Positions 4,756 through 30,667 of a DNA stretch of 32,000 nt are shown in pieces. The position numbers and the translations under genes were made by a program. Source of the DNA: Candidatus Scalinduaceae bacterium (GTDB lineage: Bacteria > Planctomycetota > Brocadiia > Brocadiales > Scalinduaceae); the NCBI GenBank assembly GCA_046759445.1, contig JBHICG010000025.1:4625-36624 (forward strand), given 5' to 3'. Positions within the stretch are counted from its first letter, which is position 1. Every line of letters starts with the position of its first letter. The notes under the pieces were generated by a model that had not been told where the DNA came from, made no database searches, and saw nothing but the letters and a program-made list of their open reading frames with translations.

Positions 4756-5964
4756 TTATCGTCTTCGTGAAGTGCCGCTATATTTGATATATCGATTTAT
4801 TATTTGCTTAACATCACAAGTCTTTTCATCTTTATCCAAACCGATGATTTTCCTTTCCCTGGTTGCGCTTTTAGTAGAATCAGATGCGTGTACGGCATTT
4901 CTCAGTATGTCCAGTCCATAAAACCTCCTGATACTAGAATACCTTGCCTTTTTTGGATCAGTGGCGCCTAAAAGTTCTCGAATAGTCTTAATTATATTTA
5001 TGCCCTGGTACAATATAGCAAGACAGATAGTATTCTTCCCATCTTCAGTTTTCTTGGTTTCAGCAAAGGCAGAAGGTGCGCGGCCTGTCATATACTGTAG
5101 TATATTGCCGAATTCACCTCTTACGGTAGGTTCCTTGAGTTGATCGGCCAATTTATTCAGGATAGCATCATTCAGCTCAAAAGGAAAATCCTGCTTGTTT
5201 AACGCTGTCTTCAACTTTTCAACCAGTTTCGGTTTAAATTTATCTTCGAAACTATCATAAAAGAAATCTTTCACAGGTGCATAAAATTCTTCTGCCTGTT
5301 TAGTGCTCATGTCAATAAGTTTTATTCCAACAATAAAGAAACCGGTCCTTGCAATCATATCTATTATGTTTCCAGGACGCGGATCATGCTTTTCAAATGG
5401 TTTTAGGATTATGAGCGAAGTTTCCGGTTTTTTGCCTTTACCAAAGTCTATAACCTTTTCTAAGACACCACCATCACTTAATGAATATTTTGCAAATAAA
5501 TTAAGTTGCTTAATGTTAGTAGCTTTATCTGCAGAAGTAAGGACTGCAGGCTCAAAATATTCAACTTTTCCGTTACCAGCTCTTATGCTGTCACCATATG
5601 TACCCCTAATCGTATTCCCCCTTAAAGGATCTGATGCGGATCCAATCACTTTATTATGGAGGATATTAACGGCATCCTCACCTTCAACAAGAAGAAGCAT
5701 GGCACGATTAGATATTCCAAGCTTGTTATTTTTCCTAAGTTTGTCATTTACATATTCTATCATGGCTTTTTTCCACAAAGGCTTCATTCTCCGCTTCTCA
5801 ATGGTTTCACAATACTCATCTAAAAACTTATCACTCGGGGTATACATTCTTGCACCAACAAGTTCCAGGTCAGACAAAGAAAGAAGCCTGCTGATTATGC
5901 CACCCGTTCTACTCTTTAATAAGCTATACGGCGTTATTAGTGCATAAGTTAATTCTTTTGCCAT
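4756..5964 (-). CDS. Tandem nucleoside-diphosphate-kinase-like domain protein
   Basis: 402 aa. Two NDK-like openings: LTYALITPYSLLKSRTGGIISRLL and TSLIILKPFEKHDPRPGNIIDMIARTGFFIVG. The C-terminal domain keeps the NDK catalytic signature RNAVHASDSTKSATRE. The N-terminal copy reads PAVLTSADKATNI at the equivalent place, with no His. Confidence 0.5.
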   Translation of the reverse strand: MAKELTYALITPYSLLKSRTGGIISRLLSLSDLELVGARMYTPSDKFLDEYCETIEKRRMKPLWKKAMIEYVNDKLRKNNKLGISNRAMLLLVEGEDAVNILHNKVIGSASDPLRGNTIRGTYGDSIRAGNGKVEYFEPAVLTSADKATNIKQLNLFAKYSLSDGGVLEKVIDFGKGKKPETSLIILKPFEKHDPRPGNIIDMIARTGFFIVGIKLIDMSTKQAEEFYAPVKDFFYDSFEDKFKPKLVEKLKTALNKQDFPFELNDAILNKLADQLKEPTVRGEFGNILQYMTGRAPSAFAETKKTEDGKNTICLAILYQGINIIKTIRELLGATDPKKARYSSIRRFYGLDILRNAVHASDSTKSATRERKIIGLDKDEKTCDVKQIINRYIKYSGTSRRR

Positions 5965-9730: not shown

Positions 9731-11107
9731 CTATTTCATATTCAGGTCCTTCATCTTTTGTTGTAAGCTCTGTCTATGCATGCCCAGTGTTTCCGCTGCC
9801 TTGCTTATATTACCATTATTCTCTTTTAGTTTCTTGCTTACAAAATCTCTTTCAAAAGCTTCAACGATCAACCTTTTCGCATCTCTGAAAGACATGTTAT
9901 AGTCAATATTCGAAAACGGGTTACAATATGTATTTGAGTTTCTAATTTCTTCTGAAAAATCATTGAGTCCTAAAGTTTCTGTATTGGTCATTACAATTGC
10001 ACCTTCAATCGCATTCTGCAATTCTCGCACATTCCCAGGCCAGTTATACTTTGTTAAAATTTTTGCTGCTTCATTTGATATCGGCATCATGTTTTTATTA
10101 TGTTTTATAGAAAAGAACTGTACAAATTTATTTACCAACATCAGGATATCTTCCTTTCGGTCTCTCAACGGTGGAAGTATAATTTCAACAACCTTCAATC
10201 TATAATACAGATCTTCTCTGAACCTATTCTCCTTTATTTCTTTAATCAATTCCTTATGAGTCGCACTTATTACTCTTACATCAACGTGAAGGGTTTCAGT
10301 CCCTCCTAATCGTTCAAAACTTTGTTCTTGCAGGACGCGTAAAACCTTTGATTGTGTATTTGGGCTCATATCCCCTATTTCATCAAGAAAGATAGTCCCT
10401 TTATTGGCCAATTCAAATTTTCCCAGACGTCTCTCTGTAGCGCCCGTAAAGGCACCCCTTTCATGACCAAACAACTCACTTTCGATTAATGTCTCTGGCA
10501 ATGCTGCACAATTCATTATTATCATAGGCATATGTCTTCGAGCACTTCTTTTATGGATTTCCTTAGCCACCAGTTCTTTTCCACTTCCACTTTCACCCTG
10601 AATCAACACTGTTACGTCAGTCTGCCCCACTTTCTCTATCTTATTAAACACATCTTTCATGATCTGGCTTTTGCCCACTATTTCTCCCATTGACTCTAAT
10701 CTGTCAATTTCTGAACGTAACCTTGCGTTTTCCTCCTCAAGGATAAGTTTTTCAAACGCATTGTTGGCAATCAACCTAAGCTCATCGATTTCAAATGGTT
10801 TGGCAATATAATCATAAGCGCCTTTCTTCATAGCATCTACAGCTATTCTTTCAGATCCATAAGCAGTTACCATAACAATCATAGGAGGCTTGCTCATACG
10901 ACTTATTTTTTCAAGTACATTAATCCCATTAACACGTGGCATATTAATATCAAGGAAGATTATAGCAGGGTTCTCTGCTTTTATCATCTCAAAAGCAGAA
11001 ATACTGTCGCCAGCTTCCTTGACAATGTAACCATCCTTTTCTAAGGCCATTTTCATTCCAAACCTTGCAGCCTTCTCATCATCCACTATTAAAACTAATT
11101 TTTTCAT
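9731..11107 (-). CDS. Sigma-54-dependent response regulator (NtrC family enhancer-binding protein)
   Basis: 458 aa. REC domain (LIVDDE, phospho-acceptor context IIFLDINMP). AAA+ sigma-54 activation domain with Walker A GESGSGKE, the GAFTGA loop, and ELFGHERGAFTGA. C-terminal Fis-type HTH (NISKAAETLGMHRQSLQQKMK). Confidence 0.9.
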   Translation of the reverse strand: MKKLVLIVDDEKAARFGMKMALEKDGYIVKEAGDSISAFEMIKAENPAIIFLDINMPRVNGINVLEKISRMSKPPMIVMVTAYGSERIAVDAMKKGAYDYIAKPFEIDELRLIANNAFEKLILEEENARLRSEIDRLESMGEIVGKSQIMKDVFNKIEKVGQTDVTVLIQGESGSGKELVAKEIHKRSARRHMPMIIMNCAALPETLIESELFGHERGAFTGATERRLGKFELANKGTIFLDEIGDMSPNTQSKVLRVLQEQSFERLGGTETLHVDVRVISATHKELIKEIKENRFREDLYYRLKVVEIILPPLRDRKEDILMLVNKFVQFFSIKHNKNMMPISNEAAKILTKYNWPGNVRELQNAIEGAIVMTNTETLGLNDFSEEIRNSNTYCNPFSNIDYNMSFRDAKRLIVEAFERDFVSKKLKENNGNISKAAETLGMHRQSLQQKMKDLNMK

Positions 11108-11119
11108 AGGATTACTCCT

Positions 11120-13237
11120 TTACATGTTACTTACTAAAAAACTCTCTGATGATGGAATATCAACTACAAACTTTGTAGCTGATTCCGTACTCTCCACCTG
11201 AATCATACCCCCCACTTCCTCAAGCTTCTTTTTTACAATCGCCAATCCCAGACCAGTTCCAGTTTGTTTGGTTGTATAGAATGGTTCAAATATTTTATTG
11301 ATATTTTCTTCGGAGATACCGAGCCCTGTATCTTTAAAAATTACCCTAATATAATCACCCTCCCGTTCATAGCTGACAGAAATTGTCAATCTTCCTCCTG
11401 TTAACATAGCTTGAATGGCATTATGAATAATATTGAAGAAGACTTCCTTCAATGACGCTTCATCTGTCATAATTACAGGTATACTATCTGAAACTTCTAA
11501 ATTTATAACAATATTATTCATTGTTGCTTCATGCTTTATAACAACAATTACTTTATTTATTACATCATCAATCTTAACATCGGTATTTTTATCACCCTGT
11601 GGTTTAGCAAACTCCAAAAGTTGGTTTACAACTTTTGTTAAACGATCTATTTCCTCAACAATTATTGAAAGGCTTTTCTTTGTTTTATAATTATCCTTAA
11701 AATCCTCACTCAAAACCTGAACAATAGCTTTAATTGAACTCAAAGGATTCTTAACCTCATGAGCGACACTAGTAGATAGCCTCCCCAGACTAGATAATTT
11801 TTCGTTTTCATAAATCCTCCTCTCTAACTGTAGCTTTTCATCAATGAGCTCAGCTTTGGCTATTGCAGAACTAATTTGATTTGCAATAATCATTAACTGT
11901 TCAAGGTTATCGGCTGGCAATCTTAAACCCCTTATAGATTTACCAAGAGACAGCAAGCCTATTAACTTTCTATCCTTAAAAACAGGAAATATAAAAAACG
12001 CCTCCAACTGTTTCATCTCATTTATTATGGCAACATCTGTGACTTCATGTCTGTCAAGCACCGTAATCTCACCTTTATCAAAATTTTTTATTATATTTAA
12101 GATATCGTCTCTTGCCATAAAAGCACCCTTTCTGTATCCAATAACTTGTATTCTGCCACCCTTAAAGAGCACCAAACTAACGTTTTTAATTGCCGTTGCC
12201 TTTTTTATCGACTCTACAACATACTCCAATAAAAGTGATAAGTTTATCAGTAAATCCGCACCAATCTGATGGCTCAAATCATTTAGAAGATATTCGCTGT
12301 CGGCGATCCTCCTAAAAAGTAATTTTCGCATTAAGCCCTGGACTTTTTCTTTCAATTTTGGAAACCAATAAACCAGTGCTATAACAAACACCGCTTCCGA
12401 CACCTTTACATTAACTGAATAATTAAGTTCAAGATATTTACTCAACTGCTTTATTCCAAAATAATAAAGACAAATAACTATCAATACCAAGAAAGAATAA
12501 AACATACTGCGCCTGAGAACAAATTCCATATAATTGTAACGATACACATAATAAGAGAATATAATACTTGGAAAGATTGAGGAAAGCATTGTAGCCAGGA
12601 TTAAGTAATCACCAATATAAGAAATAGCTCTTCCTTCAAAAAGGATCGTAAACGCAACAAGTAATGCAATGAAAATAAGAATCCAGAAAATAGAGAAGTG
12701 GAATTTCCGCTCTTCCACCTCTTCTACCTTGGCAGAAAGTATGCGTGAGATAACGGCAGACGTAAATATCGAAAATAGTAACCATACAACAAAAGGTTTA
12801 ACAAAAGGTGACACGCTCATTAGCATACGGGTTTCTTCCGAAAATATTTGCATTTCGGCTGATAACAAGAGCGGAATAATAGGAAGGTAGATTACGGTAA
12901 CCATGGACAATCTTACTATTTTTTTGATATTCCAGCCGCTCTCTAGAAGAAACAATATAGCCGTATGCATAAGTAAGCTAGGCATCAAACCCATTCCCGC
13001 ACTTGCAACTGCGTTTGATGATTGAGTGATTACATAAATATTTTTTCCAAAAAGCATTATACTAAAAAGTGAGACGGCATTACCATAATGCCACATTGCA
13101 ACACTTATTACGAGACATAAAAAGACTAATTCACTTCCCTTTTTATTCTTCCTTTGGACTATAAGAATTGAAAGTACTGTATGAAGGATGGAGCCCAGAA
13201 TGAAACCTATTAATGCTACTATTTCAATCAATGTCAT
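11120..13237 (-). CDS. Sensor histidine kinase with polytopic membrane N-domain and GAF-like domain
   Basis: 705 aa. About 300 aa of repeated hydrophobic helices, then a central GAF-like region. H-box SVAHEVKNPLSSI, N-box NIIHNAIQAM, G-boxes DTGLGI and GTGLGLAIV. There is a 12-nt gap to the downstream response regulator, so operon pairing is likely. Confidence 0.88.
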   Translation of the reverse strand: MTLIEIVALIGFILGSILHTVLSILIVQRKNKKGSELVFLCLVISVAMWHYGNAVSLFSIMLFGKNIYVITQSSNAVASAGMGLMPSLLMHTAILFLLESGWNIKKIVRLSMVTVIYLPIIPLLLSAEMQIFSEETRMLMSVSPFVKPFVVWLLFSIFTSAVISRILSAKVEEVEERKFHFSIFWILIFIALLVAFTILFEGRAISYIGDYLILATMLSSIFPSIIFSYYVYRYNYMEFVLRRSMFYSFLVLIVICLYYFGIKQLSKYLELNYSVNVKVSEAVFVIALVYWFPKLKEKVQGLMRKLLFRRIADSEYLLNDLSHQIGADLLINLSLLLEYVVESIKKATAIKNVSLVLFKGGRIQVIGYRKGAFMARDDILNIIKNFDKGEITVLDRHEVTDVAIINEMKQLEAFFIFPVFKDRKLIGLLSLGKSIRGLRLPADNLEQLMIIANQISSAIAKAELIDEKLQLERRIYENEKLSSLGRLSTSVAHEVKNPLSSIKAIVQVLSEDFKDNYKTKKSLSIIVEEIDRLTKVVNQLLEFAKPQGDKNTDVKIDDVINKVIVVIKHEATMNNIVINLEVSDSIPVIMTDEASLKEVFFNIIHNAIQAMLTGGRLTISVSYEREGDYIRVIFKDTGLGISEENINKIFEPFYTTKQTGTGLGLAIVKKKLEEVGGMIQVESTESATKFVVDIPSSESFLVSNM

Positions 13238-13546: not shown

Positions 13547-14569
13547 CTAAAGATATAGATAATCATTTACTTTACAAGTATGGCAAATTGTTTCTGTTTT
13601 GTTTTTACGACCCAGAACTTCCTTACGTGCTGAAATGTATTTTTCATTATTCCATATTTCCTTAAATGAATTCTCCTTAATATTACCAAAAGAGTGAGCT
13701 TCGCTATATACAGAACAACATGGCAAAATAGAGCCATCCCAATTTATAACTGTCTCAGTCCATAATTGATTACAATTAAATTTATTTTTTGGTTTCTTTT
13801 CAGTCATGTTAAATATGTTATACTCTGGAATAAGAGGTAACCATTTATAATCACGTTCAATTGATTTTTCAGCAGTTTCAAAAATTTCTTTGCCCATATC
13901 GGTACGCATCTTGTTTATGACTAACTTTATGCCTATTTCCTTTGCCAAGGCTCTAGCCTTTTCAATCTCATGTTCATTATGTCTGAAGACATGAAACAAC
14001 CATATTATCTCAGTATAACGATTTTTTAACTTTTTCTTTTTTTCAATTAAAAGTTTCATATTTGATATAACTCTATTAAAGTCTCCATCAATATGATAAG
14101 TTGAATAAGTTGAATTACTGGCGCCATCGCAAGAAATATATATTTTTTGTAAATTAGCTATAATTAAGGCTTCAGCTAGAGAATCCTCAATGGGTAAACT
14201 CAGATTTGTGCTTATTTTTACGGCTATTTTTTTTTCGTTAGCATACTCTACCATTTTTATAATTTCTTTGTTTATAAGAGGTTCTCCCCAATTATACAAC
14301 CTTACCAAGATTAGATTTTTACCTATTTCGTCAATAAATTGTTTAAAATCAGAAAAGGATAGGAATCCTTTTCTGGCAGAATCATCTCTTTGCCCTGTAG
14401 GACAAAGTGGACAACGAAGGTTACATATATTACCTGAATCTATAGTAATCTTGGCAGGATAGTAATAAAGGCGCACGGAACCTATTGCATACTGAATTCT
14501 ACTCATCAAAAGATTATATAATTTTCTTATACTAAAAACGCTTATGCGCCTCCACAACTTATGAGACAT
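13547..14569 (-). CDS. Radical SAM enzyme with C-terminal SPASM/twitch-like auxiliary cluster motif
   Basis: 340 aa. Canonical CxxxCxxC (CNLRCPLCPTG) near the N-terminus. The C-terminus has CNQLWTETVINWDGSILPC (C-x12-G-x4-C) followed by a terminal CHTC. Transcribed divergently from the ACP operon. Confidence 0.8.
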   Translation of the reverse strand: MSHKLWRRISVFSIRKLYNLLMSRIQYAIGSVRLYYYPAKITIDSGNICNLRCPLCPTGQRDDSARKGFLSFSDFKQFIDEIGKNLILVRLYNWGEPLINKEIIKMVEYANEKKIAVKISTNLSLPIEDSLAEALIIANLQKIYISCDGASNSTYSTYHIDGDFNRVISNMKLLIEKKKKLKNRYTEIIWLFHVFRHNEHEIEKARALAKEIGIKLVINKMRTDMGKEIFETAEKSIERDYKWLPLIPEYNIFNMTEKKPKNKFNCNQLWTETVINWDGSILPCCSVYSEAHSFGNIKENSFKEIWNNEKYISARKEVLGRKNKTETICHTCKVNDYLYL

Positions 14570-14865: not shown

Positions 14866-14912
14866 ATTGACATAAGATTGTTATTGACATCTCTTTGTAA
14901 GTTTGTTAAGTT
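14866..14912 (+). promoter_or_regulatory. Candidate sigma-70-type promoter or operator upstream of the ACP operon (two ATTGACAT direct repeats)
   Basis: ATTGACAT occurs at 14866-14873 and 14883-14890, each containing the TTGACA -35 consensus. A weak -10-like TAAGTT lies 17 nt after the second box (14907-14912). No experimental support; the -10 is poor. Confidence 0.2.
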
Positions 14913-15094
14913 CCCGCATCCATCTTTTTTCTGAAATGTGTAGCATATTTAATTCACTTAATTACACAAACATATCTTAATATATAATAGTGGTTTAAAA
15001 CCCGAACTAAGTCAAAATAAAGTAAATTATTTGATTTCACTAAAAAGTTTGTTGTCTTAAACTTTTGTAGGTTTGTTTTTTGGGAGGTATTATA

Positions 15095-15346
15095 TTGGAT
15101 ATATCAAAAGAAGTCACTTCAATTGTTGCTGAAGTTACTGAGTTAGACGAAAAAGAAATATGGGAAAAAAGAGACGCCGATTTTTTTAAGGAATTAGAAA
15201 TAGATTCTTTGTTGGCATTAGAAATACTGGCGCTCATTGAAAAAAAATTCAAAATCCAAATACCAGAAGAAAAACTAGTCGACATTACCTCATTAAATGC
15301 AACAATTGAAATGACAAAATCAACGTTGGAAGAAAATGCAAAATAG
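15095..15346 (+). CDS. Acyl carrier protein (dedicated, cluster-associated)
   Basis: The track ORF starts at TTG 15080. I prefer TTG 15095 because GGGAGG at 15082-15087 sits 7 nt upstream. The phosphopantetheine attachment motif EIDSLLALE (DSL serine) lies in a four-helix-sized protein of about 83 aa. The start codon choice is uncertain. Confidence 0.85.
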   Translation: MDISKEVTSIVAEVTELDEKEIWEKRDADFFKELEIDSLLALEILALIEKKFKIQIPEEKLVDITSLNATIEMTKSTLEENAK

Positions 15347-15430
15347 CCATATATACTTTTTGCCTCCGCACCTCTTTCATGAATTTTAAAACAGTCCGTT
15401 TATGACCTTAAACAAGAAAGGTTTTTATAA

Positions 15431-15880
15431 ATGTCGAGTTTTGAGGAAATAAAGAAACTGATTCCTCAAAAAAATCCATTCTTATTTATTGATAAAGTTA
15501 TTGATTTCCAAAAAGAAAGGAAGATTGTTTGTCTAAAAAATGTCTCTGGTAATGAACCATTCTTCGTTGGGCACTTTCCAGATTTTGCCATAATGCCAGG
15601 AGTCCTAATCTTAGAAGCCCTGGCACAAGCCTCAATCTTACTCTTCAAAAAAAGTTTTAATACCGACAAGGATAAAGATAAGGTCTTTTTATTAGGCTCT
15701 GCTGACATCCGTTTTACAAAACCTGTTTTTCCAGGCGACCAACTTATTTTAGAAATAGAGGCTGAAAAAATAATCTCTAGAGCCGCAATAATAAAGGGTA
15801 TAGCCAGAGTAGGAGAAAAGGTAGTTTCAAAAGCTACATTAAGTTTTGGTATTGCAGAAAAAGAATCTCTAAATGATTAA
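15431..15880 (+). CDS. fabZ: 3-hydroxyacyl-ACP dehydratase FabZ-like
   Basis: 149 aa hotdog-fold protein with the FabZ signature FFVGHFPDFAIMPGVLILEALAQ (catalytic His and Glu context). Confidence 0.9.
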   Translation: MSSFEEIKKLIPQKNPFLFIDKVIDFQKERKIVCLKNVSGNEPFFVGHFPDFAIMPGVLILEALAQASILLFKKSFNTDKDKDKVFLLGSADIRFTKPVFPGDQLILEIEAEKIISRAAIIKGIARVGEKVVSKATLSFGIAEKESLND

Positions 15881-15898
15881 TTCAGCTTAATAGCCAAT

Positions 15899-17131
15899 AT
15901 GCAAGAAAATCTGAATAAAAGAATCGTAATCACTGGTCTGGGAGTAATATCCCCTATTGGTTGTCAAAAGGACACTTTCTGGAATGCTTTAATCAAGGGC
16001 GCATCCGGAGTATCAGAAGTCAAGGCGTTTGACACAACTGAATTTAAGGTACATAGAGGTTGTGAAGTTAAGGACTTCAAATATGAAGACTATGCAAGTA
16101 ATGGTTCAAATCGAAAAATTGGCAAGGGATCACAGTTTGCTATTGCTGCAACCAAACTTGCACTGGAGGATTCTAAGATAGACATAGTTAATGTAGATCC
16201 GGAAACAGTAGGAGTTTCAATTGGAACTACTGCAGGTGAGATTCAAATCCTAGAAAAAGTAAATCATTTAAGATGCGAAAACGGAGATGATCATGTAGAC
16301 TCTGACCTATTCCTTAAGCATCCATGCAACAATATCCCTTCTAACATATCTATTGAATTTGGCTTTAAGGGCCCAAGCACGATAATTCCTACTGCATGTG
16401 CTGCGGGAAACTATGCTATTGGTTATGCATGCGACCTAATAAAATTGGGAAGAGCAGATGTAATGTTGGCCGGTGGTACCGATCCATTTTCCAAAGTAGC
16501 TTATGTTGGTTTTGGTAGACTCAATGCTATAGCACCGGAAATTTGTCAGCCTTTTGACAAAAACAGAAAAGGTATGTTAATCGGTGAAGGTGCTGGAATG
16601 CTGGTATTAGAATCTTTGGAAGATGCATTGGCCAGGAATGCAAATATCTATGCAGAAATCCTAGGCTATGGCCTAAGCTGTGATGGATATCATATCACAA
16701 TTCCACAACCAGAGGGAAATGGTGTCGTATCAGCGATGAGAAAGGCATTAAAAGATGCCAAAATCAAGCCTGAGGACGTTCAACATATAAGCGCACATGG
16801 CACTGGAACTGTCGCTAATGACAAGGCCGAAACAATATCTATTAAGAAAGTCTTTGGTGAACATTCAAAGCGTCTGGCTGTAATTTCTATAAAATCAATG
16901 ATAGGGCATACTATGGGAGCTGCAAGTGCTATAGAAGCCATTGCATGTGCATTAGCTATTAAAGAAGATCTAGTGCCTCCCACGATAAACTATGAAACTG
17001 AAGACCCGGAGTGTGATTTAGATTTTGTTCCCAATGTAAAACGGGAAATGCGAGTCGATATAGCCTTAAACAATGCTTATGCCTTTGGTGGCAACAACAG
17101 CTGTCTTGTATTAAAGAAGTATACCGGTTAA
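15899..17131 (+). CDS. Beta-ketoacyl-ACP synthase II-like (FabF-like, catalytically intact)
   Basis: 410 aa. Active-site Cys in PTACAAG (Cys167, codon 16397-16399). First His in DGYHITIP, second His in ISAHGTGT, and [13 protein letters not shown]-terminal [14 protein letters not shown]. Confidence 0.9.
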
Positions 17132-17160
17132 GAGAGTATAATATAATTATCTTAATTAAT

Positions 17161-17199
17161 GTTAATGGTATCTTAAAATATATGCCATTAACTTTTTTA
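17161..17199 (+). terminator. AT-rich hairpin plus T-run between the two ketosynthase genes (possible attenuator or weak intrinsic terminator)
   Basis: GTTAATGG (17161-17168) pairs with CCATTAAC (17185-17192) and is followed by TTTTTT (17193-17198). The stem is AT-rich, so stability is modest. Confidence 0.3.
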
Positions 17200-17235
17200 T
17201 TTCTAGGGAAATAATTTTGTAAGAAATAAACAACA

Positions 17236-18471
17236 ATGAATAATCGTTTGGTTATAACGGGAATTAGCATTTTATCTCCAATTGGTCTAAATAAAGATGA
17301 ATTTTGGAACAATTTGATAAACGGTGTCTCTGGGATAAAGGATATTACATTATTTGATGTCTCCAAATACAGAAGCAAGAAGGCGGGTGAAATATCAGAT
17401 TTTAATGCCAAGACATTTTTGGGTAAGAAAGGTATCCGCCATATAGACAGGACTTCGCTATTAGTTTCCTCAGCCGCAAAACTCGTAATGGAAGATGCAA
17501 ATATTACTCACGAATCCTATACTGAGGATGACTTAGGAATTGTAATAGGTTCTACATACGGCAGTATAGATAGCATTAGTTCGTTTGACCTGGAAGCTTT
17601 AAAAGAAGGACCGAATTACGTTAATCCAATGGACTTCCCAAATACGGTTCTAAATGCTCCCGCAAGCAGAGCCTCTATTTTTTGTAAAGCCACTGGCCTC
17701 AACTCTACAATTTCGACAGGTGTTACCAGTGGACTTGACGCCATTATTTATGCTTCTGATTTCCTAAAGTTAGGCAGGGTAAAGGCCGTTTTAACTGGAG
17801 GTGTTCACGGTTTGACTCATGACATTTTTTGGGGTGCATATAGGTCAGGAGTATTATCAGGCAGCAAAGATAACACGGTCGAGATTTCTGCACCATTTGA
17901 CAAAAGGCGTAATGGACTTGTAATTGGTGAAGCTGCTGCATTGCTTATGATAGAAAGACTTGAAGATGCATTAAAAAGAAATGCAAAAATTTACGCTGAA
18001 ATCAAAGGTTATGGAAGCGTCTTTAACCCAAAAAAGATTCATCATGACAGTTTCGATACTGAAGAAGGTGTAAGATGCATTTCTCTGGCAATGAAAGATG
18101 CAGAACTTAATATTGACGATATTTCTTGTATATCAGCTTGTGCAAATTCCAGCAGAACTGGTGATATAATGGAAACAAAAGTTATTAAAGATTACTTTGG
18201 CAATTATGCCGATAAAGTTCCTATAAGTGCAATTAAATCTATGACAGGAGAATGCCTTGATGCATCAGGAGCAGTACAGTGCGTTGCAAGTATAATGGCA
18301 ATCAACAACGGCGTCGTTCCCCCGACAACAAATTACCAGGAAAAAGACGATGAATGCAATTTAGATTATGTATCTAATAAAAACAGAGAATTAGATGTAA
18401 AAAACGTCCTCGTGAACGCTTTTTCTGACACAGGTAACATCTCATCCATAATCATCTCAAGATATTCATAA
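17236..18471 (+). CDS. Ketosynthase paralog lacking the catalytic Cys (chain-length-factor-like / KS-beta-like)
   Basis: 411 aa, alignable along its length to the upstream KS. The active-site Cys position reads STGVTSG (Val163, codon 17722-17724). The AHGT His position reads SACANSS (Cys302). The GH of KSMxGH reads KSMTGEC (Glu339). Confidence 0.85.
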   Translation: MNNRLVITGISILSPIGLNKDEFWNNLINGVSGIKDITLFDVSKYRSKKAGEISDFNAKTFLGKKGIRHIDRTSLLVSSAAKLVMEDANITHESYTEDDLGIVIGSTYGSIDSISSFDLEALKEGPNYVNPMDFPNTVLNAPASRASIFCKATGLNSTISTGVTSGLDAIIYASDFLKLGRVKAVLTGGVHGLTHDIFWGAYRSGVLSGSKDNTVEISAPFDKRRNGLVIGEAAALLMIERLEDALKRNAKIYAEIKGYGSVFNPKKIHHDSFDTEEGVRCISLAMKDAELNIDDISCISACANSSRTGDIMETKVIKDYFGNYADKVPISAIKSMTGECLDASGAVQCVASIMAINNGVVPPTTNYQEKDDECNLDYVSNKNRELDVKNVLVNAFSDTGNISSIIISRYS

Positions 18472-18477
18472 CCTACA

Positions 18478-19932
18478 ATGGCTATCTCCTTAAATGATTT
18501 CCCCTCAAACAAATCCCAAATAAAATCGAAATACGACGTAATCATATTAGGTGCTGGTATTGGCGGATTAATCTGCGGAGCTTTCTTAGCAAAAAGTGAA
18601 AAAAAAGTGCTCATTATCGAACAACACAGTATACCCGGAGGTTATTGCACTTCTTTCAAAAGAAAGGGTTTTATTTTTGATGCAGCAGTCCATCACATCG
18701 GTGGATGCGGAAAATGGAGTATAGTTGGTAGAAGTCTTAAGGAATTGGATATAAACATTAATTTTTTAAGACTTGACCCTATGGACAGTATAAATTTTCC
18801 TTCTTTTTCTATAGATATTCCTGCCGAACTTGACGATTACATAAATTTGCTAAAACAAAATTTCCCATCCGAAAGTGAAAATTTGTCATCCTTTTTTAAA
18901 GAATTTGTCGGGCTTTATAGATCTACAGTTAGAATTGAAGGAAGCAAATTGCTAACTAAATACAAAGACACCACTTACAAAGAAATGTTAGATAAGTTTT
19001 TTGCTGACGAGAAACTCAAAATGACCCTATCTGCACAGTGGGGTTACATAGGCTCAAAACCTCATGAGGTATCGGCTATTGGAATGTGCCAAATGCTGGT
19101 GAATTACTTAAAAGATGGAGCTTTCTACCCTATGGGAAGTACTCAAAAATTCGCAGACGCAATAGCTCAAAAATTTATTGACTATGGTGGTCAAATTATG
19201 TTATCCTCTTTGGTAAACAAGATATACACAAAAGATGCACTTGCAAAAGGAGTTATAACAGATAAAGGGAAAGAGTTTTTTACTGATATTCTTGTCTCTA
19301 ATATCGACCCAAAACAAACATTTTTCAAATTAATAGAAGAAAAGGAAGTTAATAATTCCTATCTTCACAAGATCCAGTCAATGAAAGAAAGTATTTCATT
19401 TTTTTTATTATATCTGGGTCTTGATGGAGACATTGACTTAAAATCACTAAAAAGAGGTTTCTACCATACATCTGATGATATAAATTTTTCCAATGGATGG
19501 TTTTATATATCCATTCCTACAGAAATTGATCCAAATCTTGCCCCTGACAAAAAACAAATAATTACTATCGTTGCATCATTAAAAAGCAAATATGATGATA
19601 TAAAAGATTGGGCTGCCTTTAAAGAGAAAATGAAGAAACATACAATAAATTATTTAGAAAATTTTATTCCTAATATCCAAAACCATATTGAGGTAATCGA
19701 AACCGCAACACCAAAGACGCTTAATCGTTACACACTTAACTCAAAAGGCGCAGCTTATGGTTGGGCTGTTACCGTTGACCAAACATGGTCTAAAAGGCTC
19801 CAGCACACAACACCCCTCAAGAATATTTTTCTGGCAGGGCATTGGACAAACCCAGGACCAGGGATATGTGCGGTTGTATCTTCCGGTTGGAAGGTTGCTA
19901 ATCTGATTTTAAGTAGGAGGATAAAAAAATGA
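18478..19932 (+). CDS. FAD-dependent oxidoreductase, phytoene desaturase (CrtI/CrtD)-like
   Basis: 484 aa. N-terminal Rossmann dinucleotide motif YDVIILGAGIGGLICGAFLAKSEKKVLIIEQHSIPGGY. C-terminal FLAGHWTNPGPGI, typical of the CrtI/amine-oxidase superfamily. Starts 6 nt after the upstream stop. Confidence 0.8.
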   Translation: MAISLNDFPSNKSQIKSKYDVIILGAGIGGLICGAFLAKSEKKVLIIEQHSIPGGYCTSFKRKGFIFDAAVHHIGGCGKWSIVGRSLKELDININFLRLDPMDSINFPSFSIDIPAELDDYINLLKQNFPSESENLSSFFKEFVGLYRSTVRIEGSKLLTKYKDTTYKEMLDKFFADEKLKMTLSAQWGYIGSKPHEVSAIGMCQMLVNYLKDGAFYPMGSTQKFADAIAQKFIDYGGQIMLSSLVNKIYTKDALAKGVITDKGKEFFTDILVSNIDPKQTFFKLIEEKEVNNSYLHKIQSMKESISFFLLYLGLDGDIDLKSLKRGFYHTSDDINFSNGWFYISIPTEIDPNLAPDKKQIITIVASLKSKYDDIKDWAAFKEKMKKHTINYLENFIPNIQNHIEVIETATPKTLNRYTLNSKGAAYGWAVTVDQTWSKRLQHTTPLKNIFLAGHWTNPGPGICAVVSSGWKVANLILSRRIKK

Positions 19933-21395
19933 GGAAAATGATGCTCATAAATCCACACCCCCCAGGACGACATGGTGAGGAAAGTATAACCGTCATTGTA
20001 CAAATGCCACTTAATCTGGCTTATATTGCTGCCCTTACGCCGGGAGATTGGGAGTTTGACGTAATCGATGAGAATATAGAAAATGCTATTGATGAAAATG
20101 GTGAAATAACCTTTGAACCTGTTGATTTGGTATGTATTACTTCCGTTACCTATCAAGTAGCAAGCGCCTATAAGATAGCTGAAGCATGTAGAAGAAAAGG
20201 TATGACCGTAATCCTTGGTGGAATACATGCCTCCGTAATGCCTGATGAAGCATCTAAATATGTTGATGCCGTGTTTACGGGAGAAGCAGAAGCACTCTGG
20301 CCACAGGTAATAAAAGACTTTGAAAATGGTCAACTCAAAAAGGTTTATAATGGCGGTCTGCCAGCCTTGTCAGAAATGAAGCATGTTTTTCCCAACAGAG
20401 AACTCATGAAAAAGAAATATAACTATAAGTTTTCCTCTATCGTTACAACAAAGGGTTGTCCAAATTACTGTGATTTTTGCAGTGTACCAACCTTCCAGGG
20501 AAAAAAATTCAGGGAAAGGCCGTATGAAGATGTTCTCGATGAGATGGAGGCAACTGATTACAAGGGATTAATGTTTGCTGAAGATAATTTCTACGGCCAT
20601 AGTAAAAACTCCGCTAATAGAGCAAAGGCACTCTGGCGCGGAATGATTGAAAGAGGTATCGAAAAAGACTGGCTTGGATTTACGGCACTAAATATATCAC
20701 AGGATTCAGAGGCACTAGACCTTATGGCCAAGAGTGGAAATTTTGGATTTCTCTGCGGAATAGAATCAACAAATGAGGTTGTCTTAAAGAAGATGAATAA
20801 AAGGGTAAATCTAAGGCTTGGCACAGATAGTTATTTTGACTGCATTCAAAAGATTCACGATCACGGTCTTATCGTCTGGGGATCTATAGTCTTAGGAGCA
20901 GATGGAGACGATAAGGATTCTTTTAAAAGGATGACAGAATTTGTATTGGAAAACAACATTGACGTTCTTACTTTTGGTATCAATTGTCCATTTCCACAAA
21001 CTGAACTTTATCATAGATTAGATTCAGAAAAGAGGCTTTTCCGTAAGAATTATCCTGAAGACTGGAAATATTACGATACCGCACATGTAGTTCACAGATT
21101 TGTTGACATGACGTTAGAAAATTTTATTGATGGTATGCAATATATGTATGACCATCTTTATGCCGGTGACAACCTGAGAAAACGCTTTAGAAAATCAGCT
21201 AAAACAATTGGTAGTACAAGACATGGCAAACGCAATGCTATGTTTGCCTTCCGTGTCGGCTCTGACTGGCAACAGGTCTTTGAACAGGTACTGGAAAATC
21301 TACATAAACTATACGATTCTGGAGACTATTATCAAGACTGGTATAAAAGCAGCACAGTATCAACTCATGTAGAAAATGGTGTTACCGTAAGTTAA
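19929..21395 (+). CDS. B12-binding-domain radical SAM enzyme
   Basis: 488 aa. N-terminal cobalamin-binding-like Rossmann segment (DLVCITSVTYQVASAYKIAEACRRKGMTVILGGIHAS), then the radical SAM cluster motif KGCPNYCDFCSV. Its ATG overlaps the upstream stop (ATGA at 19929-19932). Confidence 0.85.
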   Translation: MRKMMLINPHPPGRHGEESITVIVQMPLNLAYIAALTPGDWEFDVIDENIENAIDENGEITFEPVDLVCITSVTYQVASAYKIAEACRRKGMTVILGGIHASVMPDEASKYVDAVFTGEAEALWPQVIKDFENGQLKKVYNGGLPALSEMKHVFPNRELMKKKYNYKFSSIVTTKGCPNYCDFCSVPTFQGKKFRERPYEDVLDEMEATDYKGLMFAEDNFYGHSKNSANRAKALWRGMIERGIEKDWLGFTALNISQDSEALDLMAKSGNFGFLCGIESTNEVVLKKMNKRVNLRLGTDSYFDCIQKIHDHGLIVWGSIVLGADGDDKDSFKRMTEFVLENNIDVLTFGINCPFPQTELYHRLDSEKRLFRKNYPEDWKYYDTAHVVHRFVDMTLENFIDGMQYMYDHLYAGDNLRKRFRKSAKTIGSTRHGKRNAMFAFRVGSDWQQVFEQVLENLHKLYDSGDYYQDWYKSSTVSTHVENGVTVS

Positions 21396-21756
21396 ACACT
21401 CTTATACCTTCATTAGAATAAAAATGATGCTATATTTGGTCATTCGTCAATAAATACTTTTTATTTTAGTCAAACCAATCTCTCCTAAATCCTCAAACAA
21501 AAACCATATAGACAGAAAGCACATAATACTAACCGTAAAATAATTGTGTTTTTGTTTTCATCTTGCAATCACGTATATGTATACTACATACCTTTTGTTA
21601 AGCGGTAGTTTAATGGCTTGATATTATATTTTCTCTTGCTTTGGTGATTGCATCTTTGTTAGATTAATAACTTTATGGAAACGCTTATTAAAACCATAAC
21701 TAATTGTATATTAAATGAAACTTATTATATAACCTTAAACAAATTTAGGAGGAAAA

Positions 21757-27788: not shown

Positions 27789-28469
27789 ATGGTAAGGGCA
27801 TGCGATATTATTAATAAAAAATATAATAAACTAGAAAGTAAATACGGCTCCACACGCTCAACACTCTTTGGGAGATTTTACGAGAAGATAATATCCAAAT
27901 GGTTAGAAGAAAGAGAAAAGTATACTCTAGAACGATGGCCAAATAATAAAGTAGTGCGTAAGCCACGGATTTATTGGAACAATATCTTCTTAGACAATTT
28001 TAACTTTAGTAAAGATTGGTTTGTAAGAGATGAAGTTGAGGAATCTCTGAATTTTTTGAAGAACAAAAAAAGTCATTGCACACTCGACGGTACTTTTAAG
28101 AAAAATGACAAGTTCTACATATGGGAAGCAAAAAATTGGCCTTTGTATCCAGAAAAAGGACCAAAACATCAAATAAGGAAATATCTTACTAACAATCCTT
28201 GGATATTTGACAAGAAGTTTGACATTGGCGGTAAAAATTACGAAATATCAGGATTTTTATTTTCTTTCTGGAATATGGAACTAAAGGATAAAACAGAAAT
28301 CGAAGAAGGAGTAAACCAAATTATAGGAGAAAATAAATTTAAAATTATTCTAACTCAAGCGATATTAGATGATTGTTTAGGTAAACAATATGACTGGTAT
28401 CGTGAAATAATAAAGGAAGAGAAAGCAAATATTGATGATTTTTTTGATCAGCTTCTTAGTAGAAAATAG
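27789..28469 (+). CDS. PD-(D/E)xK nuclease-fold protein (restriction-endonuclease-like), uncharacterised
   Basis: 226 aa. An N-terminal helix with conserved acidic residues (FYEKIISKWLEE) is followed by HCTLD(100)G and FYIWE(113)AK(115)NW, giving the D...ExK signature in strand-like contexts. No closer family was recognised. Confidence 0.5.
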   Translation: MVRACDIINKKYNKLESKYGSTRSTLFGRFYEKIISKWLEEREKYTLERWPNNKVVRKPRIYWNNIFLDNFNFSKDWFVRDEVEESLNFLKNKKSHCTLDGTFKKNDKFYIWEAKNWPLYPEKGPKHQIRKYLTNNPWIFDKKFDIGGKNYEISGFLFSFWNMELKDKTEIEEGVNQIIGENKFKIILTQAILDDCLGKQYDWYREIIKEEKANIDDFFDQLLSRK

Positions 28470-28520
28470 TCCTTTCAAATAGGCATTATCACCTAATAGA
28501 GTGAACCTTCTTTAAAAAAC

Positions 28521-29393
28521 ATGAATAGTGTCAAATGGTTACAGTTTTTTGAGCGAATTAGCTGTTTTTACAGGCAAATGCTAATGCTCCCATTATGGAG
28601 TAAATATCCACATCATGTCACAGACGGATGGGACTCTTTAGCTATATTTTTAGAGGGCTATGCTTTTGAAAGACAAGGAAGACGACCGGATTATTCTCAT
28701 GTAGCGATAGATGCTTTGATTGATTGCAAAAAGCAAAATAATGGTAACCTGACTACAGGCATAGTTAATTATGTTTGGCAGAGCTTTAAGGATAAACTTA
28801 GTAATAAAAGTTTAAATTATCAAAATAATCCTCTGTGTCCAAGAGGAAAGGAATATTCAAAACGTTACAAACAATCTATAAAGCATTGTCACACTCAACA
28901 ACCTTCCTTAATAGAGATGTTCTTGGAAAAAATTATGCCACAGGAATTAACCTTAACATCATATTTTCAAAATCGAATTATAGAAGATAATGAATCTCGA
29001 CCTTCATACGATTTATTGAAATCTGTTCAAGGAATAGGGAAAAAGGTTTCCTCTTTTTATCTTAGAGACTTAACAGATATGATGGATAGCATCACTCTTG
29101 AAAAGTTAAAAGATAGGCAACTGTTACAACCAATAGATATTTGGGTTGAAAGAACAGTGAAAATTTTAGCTGAAAGTAAGAATATGAAAGAAGATGAAAT
29201 AGCCAAATGGATAGTCGATAATTCAATACCACATATAAATCCTGAACGGGTTAATATGGGGATTTGGTTTTTCTGTTCTTCAATAGCAGGTAGTGAGTAT
29301 AGACTTAATAACGCTTTAATCAGTTTGAATAATGCTCAAACCTTAGTAAATCTTTTTATGAATAGAATTAAAAATGTGTGTAAAGATTGCTAA
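28521..29393 (+). CDS. HhH-GPD superfamily DNA glycosylase-like protein (Ogg/AGOG-like), uncharacterised
   Basis: 290 aa. LKSVQGIGKKVSSFYLRDL (residues 166-184) resembles the helix-hairpin-helix of Ogg/EndoIII enzymes (GxGxK...FLRN). Lys175 sits at the position of the catalytic Lys in bifunctional glycosylases. A downstream QPID(206)IWVERT resembles the catalytic-Asp segment (VDxHV). The HhH-to-Asp spacing is longer than in EndoIII. Confidence 0.45.
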   Translation: MNSVKWLQFFERISCFYRQMLMLPLWSKYPHHVTDGWDSLAIFLEGYAFERQGRRPDYSHVAIDALIDCKKQNNGNLTTGIVNYVWQSFKDKLSNKSLNYQNNPLCPRGKEYSKRYKQSIKHCHTQQPSLIEMFLEKIMPQELTLTSYFQNRIIEDNESRPSYDLLKSVQGIGKKVSSFYLRDLTDMMDSITLEKLKDRQLLQPIDIWVERTVKILAESKNMKEDEIAKWIVDNSIPHINPERVNMGIWFFCSSIAGSEYRLNNALISLNNAQTLVNLFMNRIKNVCKDC

Positions 29394-29936
29394 ACTATAG
29401 GGAAAGTTCCATCAACGCTATACATATAAGGACAGACACTTTTTATTGCTTATTCTGGGTCAGGAGAGCAGGAGAGGGGTCAAGTCCTTCTTTGACTACA
29501 TGAAAAATATAGGGTTAGGTCTTGCAATATCACAAATAAACATAATCACATCTTTTTACCTTTGCCCCCTTTACTTCGGCAAGGAACAAATAAGGACCGT
29601 TTAAAAATTTATGAGGAAATACAATGGTAATTTGAAGTAGCTAAGAAAGAATGAAAGAAATTGTTTCGCAAGAAATTATAAAGAATAACCTGCATGCCTG
29701 TAGATCATCGAGAAATTCTTTTTGAAAATGCGAAATTACAATCTTTTGTACAATCAGGAAATTCGCCAAATGTTATATAGTTGTTGATATTTGTAGTATG
29801 TTTCTACATAATTACTTACATTGATTTGATTTGTGTTAAATAATTGATGCGAGATTGCAAAAAAAATCCATCTTTATCAAAAGAATAAAAAAAAAGTACA
29901 TATCGAGTATACATTATACTTTAAGGAATTATAAAT

Positions 29937-30266
29937 ATGAAACTTTCTATAAAAGAAAGAGCGATAGTTGAAGAATTCAGACAAATAATAAACGACAAAT
30001 TCCCTGATGAAATTATAGATGTATTGGTATTTGGCTCTAAAGCAAGGGGAGACGCAACGAAAGAATCAGATATTGATGTTTTAGTAATTACGTCATCAAA
30101 TAATTGGAAAAAAGGTGATGAAATTAGAGAGATCGGTTATGGACTAGACGATGAAATAGATTATAAATTATCAATTCAAGTTATTTCAAAATCACACCTT
30201 GATTATCTAAGGCAAAATAATTTTCAGTTTGTTGCAAATATAGAAAATGAAGGTATTATTGTATGA
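29937..30266 (+). CDS. Nucleotidyltransferase-domain antitoxin (MNT)
   Basis: 109 aa with the minimal nucleotidyltransferase signature VFGSKARGDATKESDIDVLV (GSxxRG...DxD). Overlaps the downstream HEPN gene by 4 nt. Confidence 0.85.
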   Translation: MKLSIKERAIVEEFRQIINDKFPDEIIDVLVFGSKARGDATKESDIDVLVITSSNNWKKGDEIREIGYGLDDEIDYKLSIQVISKSHLDYLRQNNFQFVANIENEGIIV

Positions 30267-30667
30267 AACATATCTATGAGGAAGAGATAAGACTAGAGAT
30301 AGAGAGAAGTAAAAAAGCATTGGATGCCGCTAAAAAGCTTTTTGAAGAAGAACTGTTTGAAGACGCAATTTCTCGTTCTTATTATGCGGTTTTACATGCA
30401 GCAAAGGCGGCTTTGCTTGGAGATCACATAATAGTTGATTCACATGAAGCAGTGAAAAGGCTCTTTGGTATGCATTTGGTCAAGACAGGAAAAGTTGATG
30501 CTAAATTCTCTAAGATTCTTCGAGAAGAGCAAGATGAACGTTTTTTGGCTGATTATGATGTATCATTTTCACCTGAAAAAGAACGCGTAGAAAAGAGAAT
30601 TAAAGACGCAGTGTGTTTTTTTGATGCAATGAGTTCATACCTTAAACAAAAGGATATTGATTTTTAA
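30263..30667 (+). CDS. HEPN-domain toxin
   Basis: 134 aa all-helical protein with the HEPN-family pattern (AISRSYYAVLHAAKAALL, RLFGMH as an Rx4H-like element, EEQDERFLADYD). ATGA overlap with the MNT gene at 30263-30266. Confidence 0.8.
   Translation: MKHIYEEEIRLEIERSKKALDAAKKLFEEELFEDAISRSYYAVLHAAKAALLGDHIIVDSHEAVKRLFGMHLVKTGKVDAKFSKILREEQDERFLADYDVSFSPEKERVEKRIKDAVCFFDAMSSYLKQKDIDF

Follow-up and report, generated by a model that had tools for sequence, protein, structure and literature searches.

A predicted Scalinduaceae ortholog of anammox Cluster I, a candidate operon for ladderane biosynthesis

Ladderane lipids are, to our knowledge, the only natural compounds with linearly fused cyclobutane rings, and their biosynthesis has been an open question since 2002. 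The field's main candidate, whose correct recognition matters for annotation, is an operon of anammox planctomycetes termed Cluster I in Kuenenia stuttgartiensis (KustE3603-3608; bioRxiv 10.64898/2026.05.19.726425, Figure 1 legend). It encodes, in this order, an acyl carrier protein (ACP), the dehydratase FabZ, two ketosynthases (KS; FabF2 and the inactive paralog FabFmut), a phytoene-dehydrogenase homolog and a cobalamin-binding radical S-adenosylmethionine (SAM) enzyme. Here we examine a block of six genes at positions 15095-21395 of a 32-kb stretch of DNA (hereafter the window; 36% GC) from contig JBHICG010000025.1, which carries the NCBI label Candidatus Scalinduaceae, order Brocadiales. 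Judging from its sequence, this block is almost certainly the Scalinduaceae ortholog of Cluster I. The locus is already known, as Cluster I has been published and the structures of orthologous proteins have partly been solved; the window adds one more ortholog, and the comparison with other genomes is more useful than this ortholog alone.

Every known ladderane producer is described as having Cluster I conserved and strongly expressed (PMC10139942; bioRxiv 10.64898/2026.05.19.726425), and the literature has repeatedly called it unique to them. The ACP and FabZ of S. brodae and Kuenenia (amxACP and amxFabZ; PDB 7qv0 and 8ay*) were studied by Dietl et al. 2023 (PMC10139942). In these orthologs amxFabZ dehydrates (3R)-3-hydroxyacyl chains on amxACP, but not when the carrier is the host's canonical ACP, and it is defined by Ile69 in place of a tunnel Gly, Ser or Thr at position 96 and Val or Ile at position 115 (PMC10139942); C6 chains are converted much faster than C8, and C10-C12 chains hardly at all. 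The two ketosynthases, amxFabF2 and amxFabFmut, were investigated as a KS paired with its chain-length-factor (CLF)-like partner in their Kuenenia and B. fulgida versions (bioRxiv 10.64898/2026.05.19.726425). Each is inactive singly, and upon co-expression they co-purify, decarboxylate malonyl-amxACP and form acetoacetyl-amxACP (same preprint). Crosslinking of this heterodimer favoured C6 and C8 probes over C16.

The locus and its conservation among anammox genomes

All six genes lie on the forward strand (open reading frames, ORFs, at 15080/15095-15346, 15431-15880, 15899-17131, 17236-18471, 18478-19932 and 19929-21395), are spaced by 84, 18, 104, 6 and -4 nt, and make the block of 6301 nt about 97% coding. 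Of ten window proteins, nine have exact-sequence matches among NCBI entries MFQ5964258-MFQ5964273, which come from one 42,829-bp contig of a metagenome-assembled genome labelled 'Candidatus Scalinduaceae bacterium' (phylum Planctomycetota). The products of the block are MFQ5964265-70, and for all six the Pfam assignments lie above the gathering score. The operon begins with an amxACP ortholog (15095-15346; PP-binding) and a 3-hydroxyacyl-ACP dehydratase of amxFabZ type (15431-15880; FabA-like), followed by an active KS orthologous to amxFabF2 (15899-17131; N- and C-terminal ketoacyl-synt domains) and by its dead paralog, the ortholog of amxFabFmut and CLF-like partner (17236-18471; the same two domains). 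It ends with an FAD-dependent oxidoreductase of amine-oxidase/CrtI fold ('PDH', KustE3607 ortholog; 18478-19932; NAD_binding_8 and Amino_oxidase) and a cobalamin-binding radical SAM protein (KustE3608 ortholog; 19929-21395; B12-binding, Radical_SAM and DUF4070). Six co-directional genes thus stand in Cluster I order, and at the level of sequence the block agrees with Cluster I in every feature that we tested. A preliminary description of this DNA had given the layout, the spacing and a series of motifs (DSL, GHFP...PGVLILEALAQ, Cys-His-His, GxGxxG and CPNYCDFC), all of which proved exact when compared with the ORF list, Pfam and our alignments.

Comparison loci were fetched around homologs of the B12 radical SAM protein, and at least six other Brocadiales genomes turned out to hold these six genes with their order unchanged, a recurrence well beyond chance. 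Colinear loci are present in K. stuttgartiensis (CP049055, L083), Brocadia sinica (BAFN01, L085) and marine Scalindua sp. contigs (L087-L090), and likewise in a Hainich groundwater Brocadiaceae metagenome-assembled genome (MAG; L003), in RIFCSPHIGHO2_12_FULL_52_36 (L004) and on a 5.1-Mb ENA contig (L093). Identity to the Kuenenia proteins amounts to 83% for ACP, 64% for FabZ, 74% for KS, 63% for the dead KS, 58% for the flavoprotein and 80% for the B12 radical SAM protein, while the corresponding values for Scalindua sp. (L087) are 85%, 76%, 83%, 79%, 75% and 88%; across Scalindua-lineage orthologs the window proteins are 75-92% identical. These data bear out the preliminary description in its statement that the same gene set and order occur in the Kuenenia candidate ladderane locus (KustE3603-3608, colinear at 58-83% identity), and its guess of an anammox planctomycete as host fits the NCBI label. 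The synteny across Brocadiales that it had proposed to score is conserved in Kuenenia, Brocadia, Scalindua and the further loci. A GTDB genome scan with the B12 radical SAM alignment, which is not a census, gave mostly remote similarities among the matches listed (~30% identity).

The ACP gene (PP-binding, 52 bits) has a TTG start codon at 15095 with GGGAGG 7 nt before it, and its 83-residue product, identical to MFQ5964265.1, carries the serine attachment site in EIDSLL. In the PDB it matches 7qv0_D (E=4.2e-39), the chain that represents ACP in the complex of S. brodae amxACP with amxFabZ, as well as 7auf_A (E=1.1e-36), with ordinary ACPs at ~1e-6. It is 82-85% identical to the Kuenenia, Brocadia and Scalindua orthologs and shares with them an insertion of two residues (EIWEKRD) relative to E. 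coli ACP. Both the E-values and the shared insertion place this protein with amxACP rather than with canonical AcpP. Similarly, FabZ (FabA-like, score 88; with the GHFP...PGVLILEALAQ motif) passes the NCBIfam cut-off of NF000582 (146.4 vs 113) and matches the amxFabZ structures 8ayi_A (E=9.2e-73) and 7qv0_A (E=1.6e-72), compared with 5e-33 for E. coli FabZ. The alignment shows that catalytic His48 and Glu62 are retained and that Ile69, Thr96 and Ile115 reproduce the amxFabZ signature, the basic patch residues at positions 96 and 115 being replaced. Ile69 is not exclusive to anammox bacteria, since it is also found in FabZ of non-anammox and Desulfobacterales homologs.

An alignment of 31 KS sequences revealed Cys/His/Lys/His in the first KS of the window (Cys167, His300 and His337 forming the triad) and Val/Cys/Lys/Glu in the same columns of the second, i.e. 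one intact Cys-His-His enzyme and one with a replaced triad, as in Cluster I. The pattern published for dead anammox KS is a change of Cys to Val or Thr and of His to Asn, Cys or Glu; at the His298 position, the window shares Cys with the Scalindua-related loci of the comparison, and Kuenenia and Brocadia have Asn. In the PDB, the active KS matches chain 9s5h_B (E=3.8e-208) and the dead KS chain 9s5h_C (E=1.5e-183). Entries 9s5h and 9s5i hold two different KS chains, and 9s5i also an ACP chain; we infer that they are the amxFabF heterodimer of B. fulgida and the complex of this heterodimer with ACP from bioRxiv 10.64898/2026.05.19.726425, a preprint that gives no PDB codes. The active KS is 74-86% identical to its anammox orthologs, passes the FabF subfamily NF005589 of NCBIfam (450 vs 387) and is closer to FabF than to the KS of polyketide synthases (PKS; 4ls5 at 7e-110 vs 7e-78 for the act KS 1tqy in the PDB search), whereas the dead paralog stays below every NCBIfam FabF cut-off (334.6 vs 387). 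A heterodimer of KS and inactive KS, which the preliminary description had assumed, has been demonstrated experimentally for the orthologs (bioRxiv 10.64898/2026.05.19.726425).

The last two proteins represent the extremes of conservation in the operon. The flavoprotein shows the lowest conservation of all six proteins (58-76% identity to its anammox orthologs), contains a GAGIGG motif and has the amine-oxidase fold over its full length (Pfam). Against the crtI_fam model of NCBIfam (TIGR02734) it scores 166 bits, below the cut-off of 238.1, and its nearest solved structure, Pantoea CrtI (4dgk), is matched at only E=1.4e-25. The B12 radical SAM protein, with 80-92% identity to other anammox genera the most conserved, combines a B12-binding domain (PF02310, 40.6; cut-off 32.1), a Radical_SAM domain (PF04055, 56.2; cut-off 29.5) and DUF4070 (25.4), and its C177-PNY-C181-DF-C184 motif is invariant in an alignment of 14 sequences. 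The B12-binding domain and the CxxxCxxC core predict a class B radical SAM enzyme. Scores against all named B12 radical SAM families of NCBIfam are only 75-89 bits (cut-offs 360-650); membership in TIGR04072, 'rSAM_ladder_B12', was accordingly rejected (88.6 bits vs 360), and the PDB search returned no close structure (best 9ccb_A, E=3e-14). In the window the start of the radical SAM gene overlaps the stop of the flavoprotein gene by 4 nt, and the same junction measures -4 to +13 nt across eight loci compared, often as a 4-nt overlap, which suggests that the two proteins work as a pair.

The limits of the unit are indicated by its surroundings, as the flanking genes differ in every genome compared. 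In Kuenenia the upstream neighbour is an isocitrate-dehydrogenase-family gene; Brocadia has uncharacterised genes there, Scalindua sp. has a ParA/CbiA-like gene, and the window has a gene for a radical SAM protein with a SPASM domain plus a two-component system. Downstream, guaA follows in Scalindua sp. and genes for a 177-residue membrane protein, kdsB and pyrG follow in the window. We aligned the 300 nt 5' of ACP from the window, Scalindua sp., Kuenenia, Brocadia sinica and L093. Across these five genera TTATTGACA is invariant upstream of ACP and is followed 17 nt on by a TAnnnT hexamer, the rest of the region being unalignable (mean column identity 44%). In the window, the promoter-like element occupies 14884-14912 of the forward strand, with TTGACA as -35 box (14884-14889), a 17-nt spacer and TAAGTT as -10-like hexamer (14907-14912); a second TTGACA lies at 14867-14872. 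We regard the TTATTGACA box and the hexamer as a putative promoter that is conserved and may travel with the six genes. A generic promoter and terminator scan was uninformative (31 promoter-like sites vs 34 expected) and missed the element because its -10 hexamer is weak. From the differing flanks and the conserved putative promoter the operon is read as an autonomous unit, whose predicted boundaries are sharply defined by the synteny breaks and this element.

Several additional members or elements were considered and rejected. The divergent SPASM gene (13547-14569, reverse strand; radical SAM and SPASM by Pfam), whose product has its best NCBIfam matches to cofactor or peptide maturases far below cut-off, gave no tblastn match in the six-gene loci searched with it and is not counted as a seventh member. 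The exact sequence of this product is missing from the protein collection, probably owing to a different annotated start. The preliminary description had chosen it as a co-expression partner; as it is absent beside the cluster in every other genome examined, we take it for a chance neighbour. The 177-residue membrane protein, KdsB and PyrG are excluded as well, as none of them lies downstream in any other locus, not even in L003, the closest relative, and tblastn with the membrane protein gave no match in the loci searched with it. In Kuenenia and Brocadia, the radical SAM gene is followed on its 3' side by a 42-residue ORF and a pyridine-nucleotide-disulfide oxidoreductase of 474-477 residues (L083:11520-13073 and L085:12025-13587); neither the window nor Scalindua sp. 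has this pair downstream. A riboswitch or other RNA element in the ~520-nt upstream gap or in the 104-nt gap between KS and CLF was discarded, Rfam at gathering thresholds matching no RNA family anywhere in the window; the latter gap measures only 6 nt in Scalindua sp.

A proposed route to ladderanes

The biochemistry of the orthologs was carried over to the window because the proteins are 63-90% identical and their signature residues are conserved. The operon, presumably transcribed from the conserved putative promoter ~200 nt upstream of ACP, would supply its own carrier protein. The active KS and its dead paralog would form an obligate KS/CLF-like heterodimer that primes itself by decarboxylation of malonyl-ACP to acetoacetyl-ACP and prefers C6-C8 chains, and the FabZ variant would dehydrate (3R)-3-hydroxyacyl chains on the operon ACP only, mainly up to C6-C8. 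Ketoreduction, and enoyl reduction if any, would have to come from enzymes whose genes lie outside the operon, which encodes neither activity. The flavoprotein and the B12 radical SAM protein, whose genes appear to be translationally coupled in the window, may modify the chain on ACP while it is short or still growing. In this scheme the flavoprotein could introduce or shift unsaturation, while the radical SAM protein could form the C-C bonds that close the cyclobutane rings, most likely stepwise during elongation and not by zipping up a finished polyene.

A different order of events, with a polyunsaturated acyl chain made first and cyclised by radical chemistry afterwards, was named in the preliminary description and is the least favoured route in the current literature: polyunsaturated intermediates have not been detected, isotope labelling does not fit, and both amxFabZ and the KS/CLF pair prefer C6-C8 chains. 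A review of 2026 keeps three mechanistic classes open and reports no ring-forming enzyme as identified (PMC13459092). That Cluster I takes part in ladderane synthesis is in our view probable, with considerable room for doubt, and the assignment of the ring-forming step to the flavoprotein/B12 radical SAM pair is a tentative one that we hold with less than even confidence. Taken as one statement, namely that the block is a Cluster I ortholog and as such the leading candidate for the ladderane pathway, our interpretation is likely to be right, and the operon marks the MAG that carries it as a probable producer of ladderanes and as part of the anammox lineage.

A number of observations weigh against this interpretation. 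No experiment ties any Cluster I protein to ladderanes. Expression of Kuenenia candidate genes in E. coli yielded neither ladderanes nor polyunsaturated acids (Javidpour 2016, PMC4790861), a failure that the preliminary description had stated correctly; Kuenenia kuste3607 was unable to replace CrtI in the lycopene pathway, and in vitro the amxFabF heterodimer did not elongate past acetoacetyl-ACP. According to our ORF and Pfam survey, the operon has no genes for a ketoreductase (KR), an enoyl reductase (ER), a malonyl transferase (MCAT) or a thioesterase/acyltransferase, and no KR, ER, MCAT or KAS III gene is present in the 32-kb window. Genes for hydrazine synthase and hydrazine dehydrogenase are likewise lacking in the window, for which reason the case for an anammox host is built on its NCBI label together with the identity of the proteins. 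Finally, the sister cassettes in non-anammox MAGs described below weaken the argument that Cluster I is exclusive to ladderane producers.

Sister cassettes outside the anammox lineage and alternative readings

The search with the B12 radical SAM protein also returned a second tier of matches at 50-64% identity, which occur in two kinds of gene context. One is a paralogous unit of B12 radical SAM, KS, dead KS, in some cases an old yellow enzyme (OYE), enoyl-CoA hydratase (ECH), KR and MIase, found in Brocadia sp., Ca. Subterrananammoxibius, L092 and L093. In L005, L006 and L093 the dead KS of this unit shows Phe/Asn/Lys/Glu, the pattern listed for Kuste2805 (Rattray et al.), with Ser instead of Asn in L092. 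The other context comprises five loci, here called sister cassettes, from hosts of 58-70% GC that are not labelled Brocadiales: L091:5476-12338 (OLD61837/OLD61838, 'Acidobacteria bacterium 13_1_40CM_2_60_7'; 60% GC), L094:6859-13655 (TAH37090.1, 'Planctomycetota bacterium'; 70% GC), L095:6807-17307 (GCA_008501825.1; 58% GC), L097:4841-15219 (GCA_964649065.1; 69% GC; a Myxococcota label is probable, not confirmed) and a 121-kb contig of JGI 3300056388 that is known from its gene table alone. Accessions of Planctomycetota among the sister cassettes are TAH37090.1 and KAA3605164.1.

All five loci possess ACP, FabZ, KS, dead KS, flavoprotein and B12 radical SAM genes colinear with Cluster I. A KR gene directly follows the B12 radical SAM gene in three of them and follows a fused second B12 radical SAM-KS unit in L095 and L097, and FabH is nearby in three of the five. 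The triad of the CLF is dead here too, the flavoprotein and radical SAM genes are coupled, FabZ has Ile69 with hydrophobic residues at positions 96 and 115, and the ACPs carry the same two-residue insertion, although Ile69 and this insertion have been regarded as traits specific to anammox bacteria. Identity between L091 and the window is 48% for FabZ, 57% for KS, 38% for the dead KS, 42% for the flavoprotein and 56% for the B12 radical SAM protein. In quick neighbour-joining (NJ) trees, calculated without support values, the KS, dead KS and flavoprotein of the sister cassettes form the sister clade of the anammox clade, with the paralogous unit outside both; the tree of the B12 radical SAM protein is less clean. 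A limited literature search found no description of this sister clade, and the full six-gene architecture does not appear in the papers that report 'ladderane' clusters called by antiSMASH in other phyla. The preliminary description had named wide conservation of the operon in makers of only ordinary fatty acids as evidence against its reading; the colinear homologs in non-anammox MAGs, at only 38-57% identity, go part of the way towards this.

The paralogous unit and the six-gene cassette can adjoin each other, divergently in the anammox locus L093:3035-17668 and fused head to tail in the non-anammox loci L095 and L097, which suggests a joint function. In the latter two, the second unit has only a KR after the dead KS, compared with (OYE)-ECH-KR-MIase in the anammox-type loci. 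L093 contains in addition another B12 radical SAM gene of Cluster I type (20394-21464, reverse strand), 74% identical to that of the window over 352 residues, situated 6 kb from the second unit and truncated by the end of the locus. A Desulfobacterales MAG (L096:7089-15256) holds the series OYE, flavodoxin-like, flavoprotein, KR, ACP, FabZ (with Ile69), KS and dead KS. Its flavoprotein is 38% identical to the L091 homolog and the set includes no B12 radical SAM gene; it is a more distant relative, probably the Desulfotalea-type cluster noted by Rattray et al.

It is conceivable, though we think it rather unlikely, that the six-gene cassette is one branch of a wider, multi-phylum family of ACP/Ile69-FabZ/KS-CLF/flavoprotein/B12 radical SAM cassettes and not an anammox invention. 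If the non-anammox carriers should make radical-cyclised acyl chains, with cyclobutane or other strained rings, ladderane-type chemistry would not be unique to anammox bacteria, and their fuller operons, with KR and FabH included, would provide a better template for reconstitution than the Kuenenia genes that were tried. The sister cassettes, which contain the missing ketoreductase, are in any case suggested as new material for such work, and together with the fusion or adjacency of the two units they offer a lead on whether cyclised acyl chains occur outside anammox bacteria.

The alternative that survives best, improbable as we judge it, concerns function: the cassette could be a general module of several phyla for an unusual short or modified acyl chain (e.g. 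a primer or a radical-modified intermediate), and the cyclobutane chemistry of anammox bacteria could reside elsewhere, for example in the paralogous B12 radical SAM-KS-CLF-ECH-KR-MIase unit (Kuste2802-2805 type) or in other radical SAM clusters. The sharing of FabZ Ile69 and the ACP insertion with Acidobacteria, Planctomycetota and probably Myxococcota points in this direction, as do the sister-clade position of their KS, CLF and flavoprotein in the NJ trees and the fusion (L095, L097) or adjacency (L093) of the second B12 radical SAM-KS unit, which suggests cooperation; the C6-C8 preference of FabZ and KS/CLF, moreover, fits enzymes that make the linear part only. However, the anammox sequences form a clade of their own under much stronger constraint, with a B12 radical SAM protein that is 80-92% identical across genera vs 56% to the Acidobacteria homolog. 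Furthermore, ring formation has not been linked to an enzyme encoded elsewhere either, and the non-anammox MAGs might also make cyclised chains. Participation of Cluster I in ladderane synthesis is still preferred.

Far less probable is a type II PKS or aryl-polyene-like cluster for a conjugated polyene pigment or a similar product instead of a membrane lipid. Such a function would agree with the KS/CLF architecture and the lack of an enoyl reductase in the operon, with precomputed Pfam matches of ortholog FabZs to ApeI-like and ApeP-like families, and with sub-threshold NCBIfam matches to AmcE/AmcF, type II PKS-like enzymes of cispentacin. It is contradicted by the greater similarity of the KS to FabF than to the act KS and by a CLF that has Val and not the Gln carried in the active site of aromatic PKS CLFs. 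Nor are there, by the ORF and Pfam survey, genes for cyclase/aromatase, aryl-starter, glycosyl- or acyl-transfer or export functions in or beside the operon, and the literature records no polyunsaturated acids from anammox bacteria. Conservation and high expression in all known ladderane producers are what would be expected of a bulk membrane component (PMC10139942). A redundant housekeeping set of type II fatty acid synthase (FAS II) for ordinary straight-chain fatty acids is hardly credible, for although FabZ and the active KS pass their NCBIfam cut-offs, anammox genomes hold separate canonical FabF, FabZ and ACP genes (literature), amxFabZ is idle on the canonical ACP of its own organism and poor beyond C8, the second KS is catalytically dead, the flavoprotein and B12 radical SAM protein have no role in FAS II, and FabD, FabG, FabI and FabH are absent, leaving the elongation cycle incomplete.

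Neighbouring features and comparison with known systems

Beyond the operon, three regions of the window deserve mention. The stretch 9731-13237 (reverse strand), upstream of the SPASM gene, encodes a response regulator of the sigma-54 type together with a histidine kinase that spans the membrane several times. In L092, too, a sigma-54 regulator and a kinase are encoded upstream of the B12 radical SAM-KS unit; only the catalytic domain of the kinase is similar between the two (36%), so that no conserved two-component link is evident. A protein of 402 residues encoded at 4756-5964 (reverse strand), between dnaE and a gene of metallo-beta-lactamase fold, gives three separate matches to the nucleoside diphosphate kinase (NDK) domain, which normally measures ~140 residues, and is an oversized or interrupted NDK-like protein. 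The region 27789-30667 is low in GC (0.30-0.31) and harbours two ORFs (226 and 290 residues) without Pfam match, followed by an NTP_transf_2 nucleotidyltransferase gene and a HEPN gene overlapping by 4 nt, a typical MNT-HEPN toxin-antitoxin arrangement.

Among the described systems, Cluster I of Kuenenia (Rattray 2009; Dietl 2023; Granatino 2026 preprint) is the same as the window in its six genes, their order and orientation, with similar spacing, and both have in common the FabZ signature residues, the state of the dead KS triad and the promoter box. The differences are confined to lineage details, i.e. the flanks, the downstream pair of 42-residue ORF and oxidoreductase, and Asn vs Cys at His298. 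The non-anammox sister cassettes stand further apart, with 38-57% identity, tighter packing of genes, an added KR and FabH often nearby.

Each part of the operon also resembles, and departs from, a better known enzyme. Compared with canonical FAS II (AcpP, FabZ, FabF), the folds, the FabZ His/Glu pair, the Cys-His-His of KS and the DSL phosphopantetheine site are common, whereas in the window FabZ the tunnel Gly is replaced by Ile and two basic residues for ACP docking are lost, the ACP bears its two-residue insertion, the anammox KS needs a dead partner, KR, ER and MCAT are absent, and a flavoprotein and a B12 radical SAM protein are added. The flavoprotein shares the FAD Rossmann motif GxGxxG and the amine-oxidase fold with CrtI phytoene desaturases, but it falls below the family cut-off, its Kuenenia ortholog did not complement crtI, and its presumed substrate is an acyl-ACP and not a carotenoid. 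Likewise, the B12 radical SAM protein has the N-terminal B12-binding domain and the CxxxCxxC core of class B enzymes (HpnR, HpnJ, BchE, PhpK, TIGR04072), carries a DUF4070 tail and, with scores far under the cut-offs, belongs to none of the named families.

A functional parallel is offered by the KS/CLF pairs of type II PKS such as actinorhodin ActI and ishigamide Iga11/Iga12, in which, as in the window, an inactive paralog comes after the active KS and a dedicated ACP serves them. The likeness extends to the anammox ortholog pair, which forms a heterodimer, primes by decarboxylation of malonyl-ACP and shapes the acyl tunnel. Aromatic PKS differ in that the window CLF has Val/Cys/Glu, cyclases and aromatases are missing, the KS is nearer to FabF and the assumed product is a membrane fatty acid. 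To judge from these features, the operon works like a KS/CLF module of type II PKS that has been grafted onto FAS II parts, and it falls outside the aromatic PKS family.

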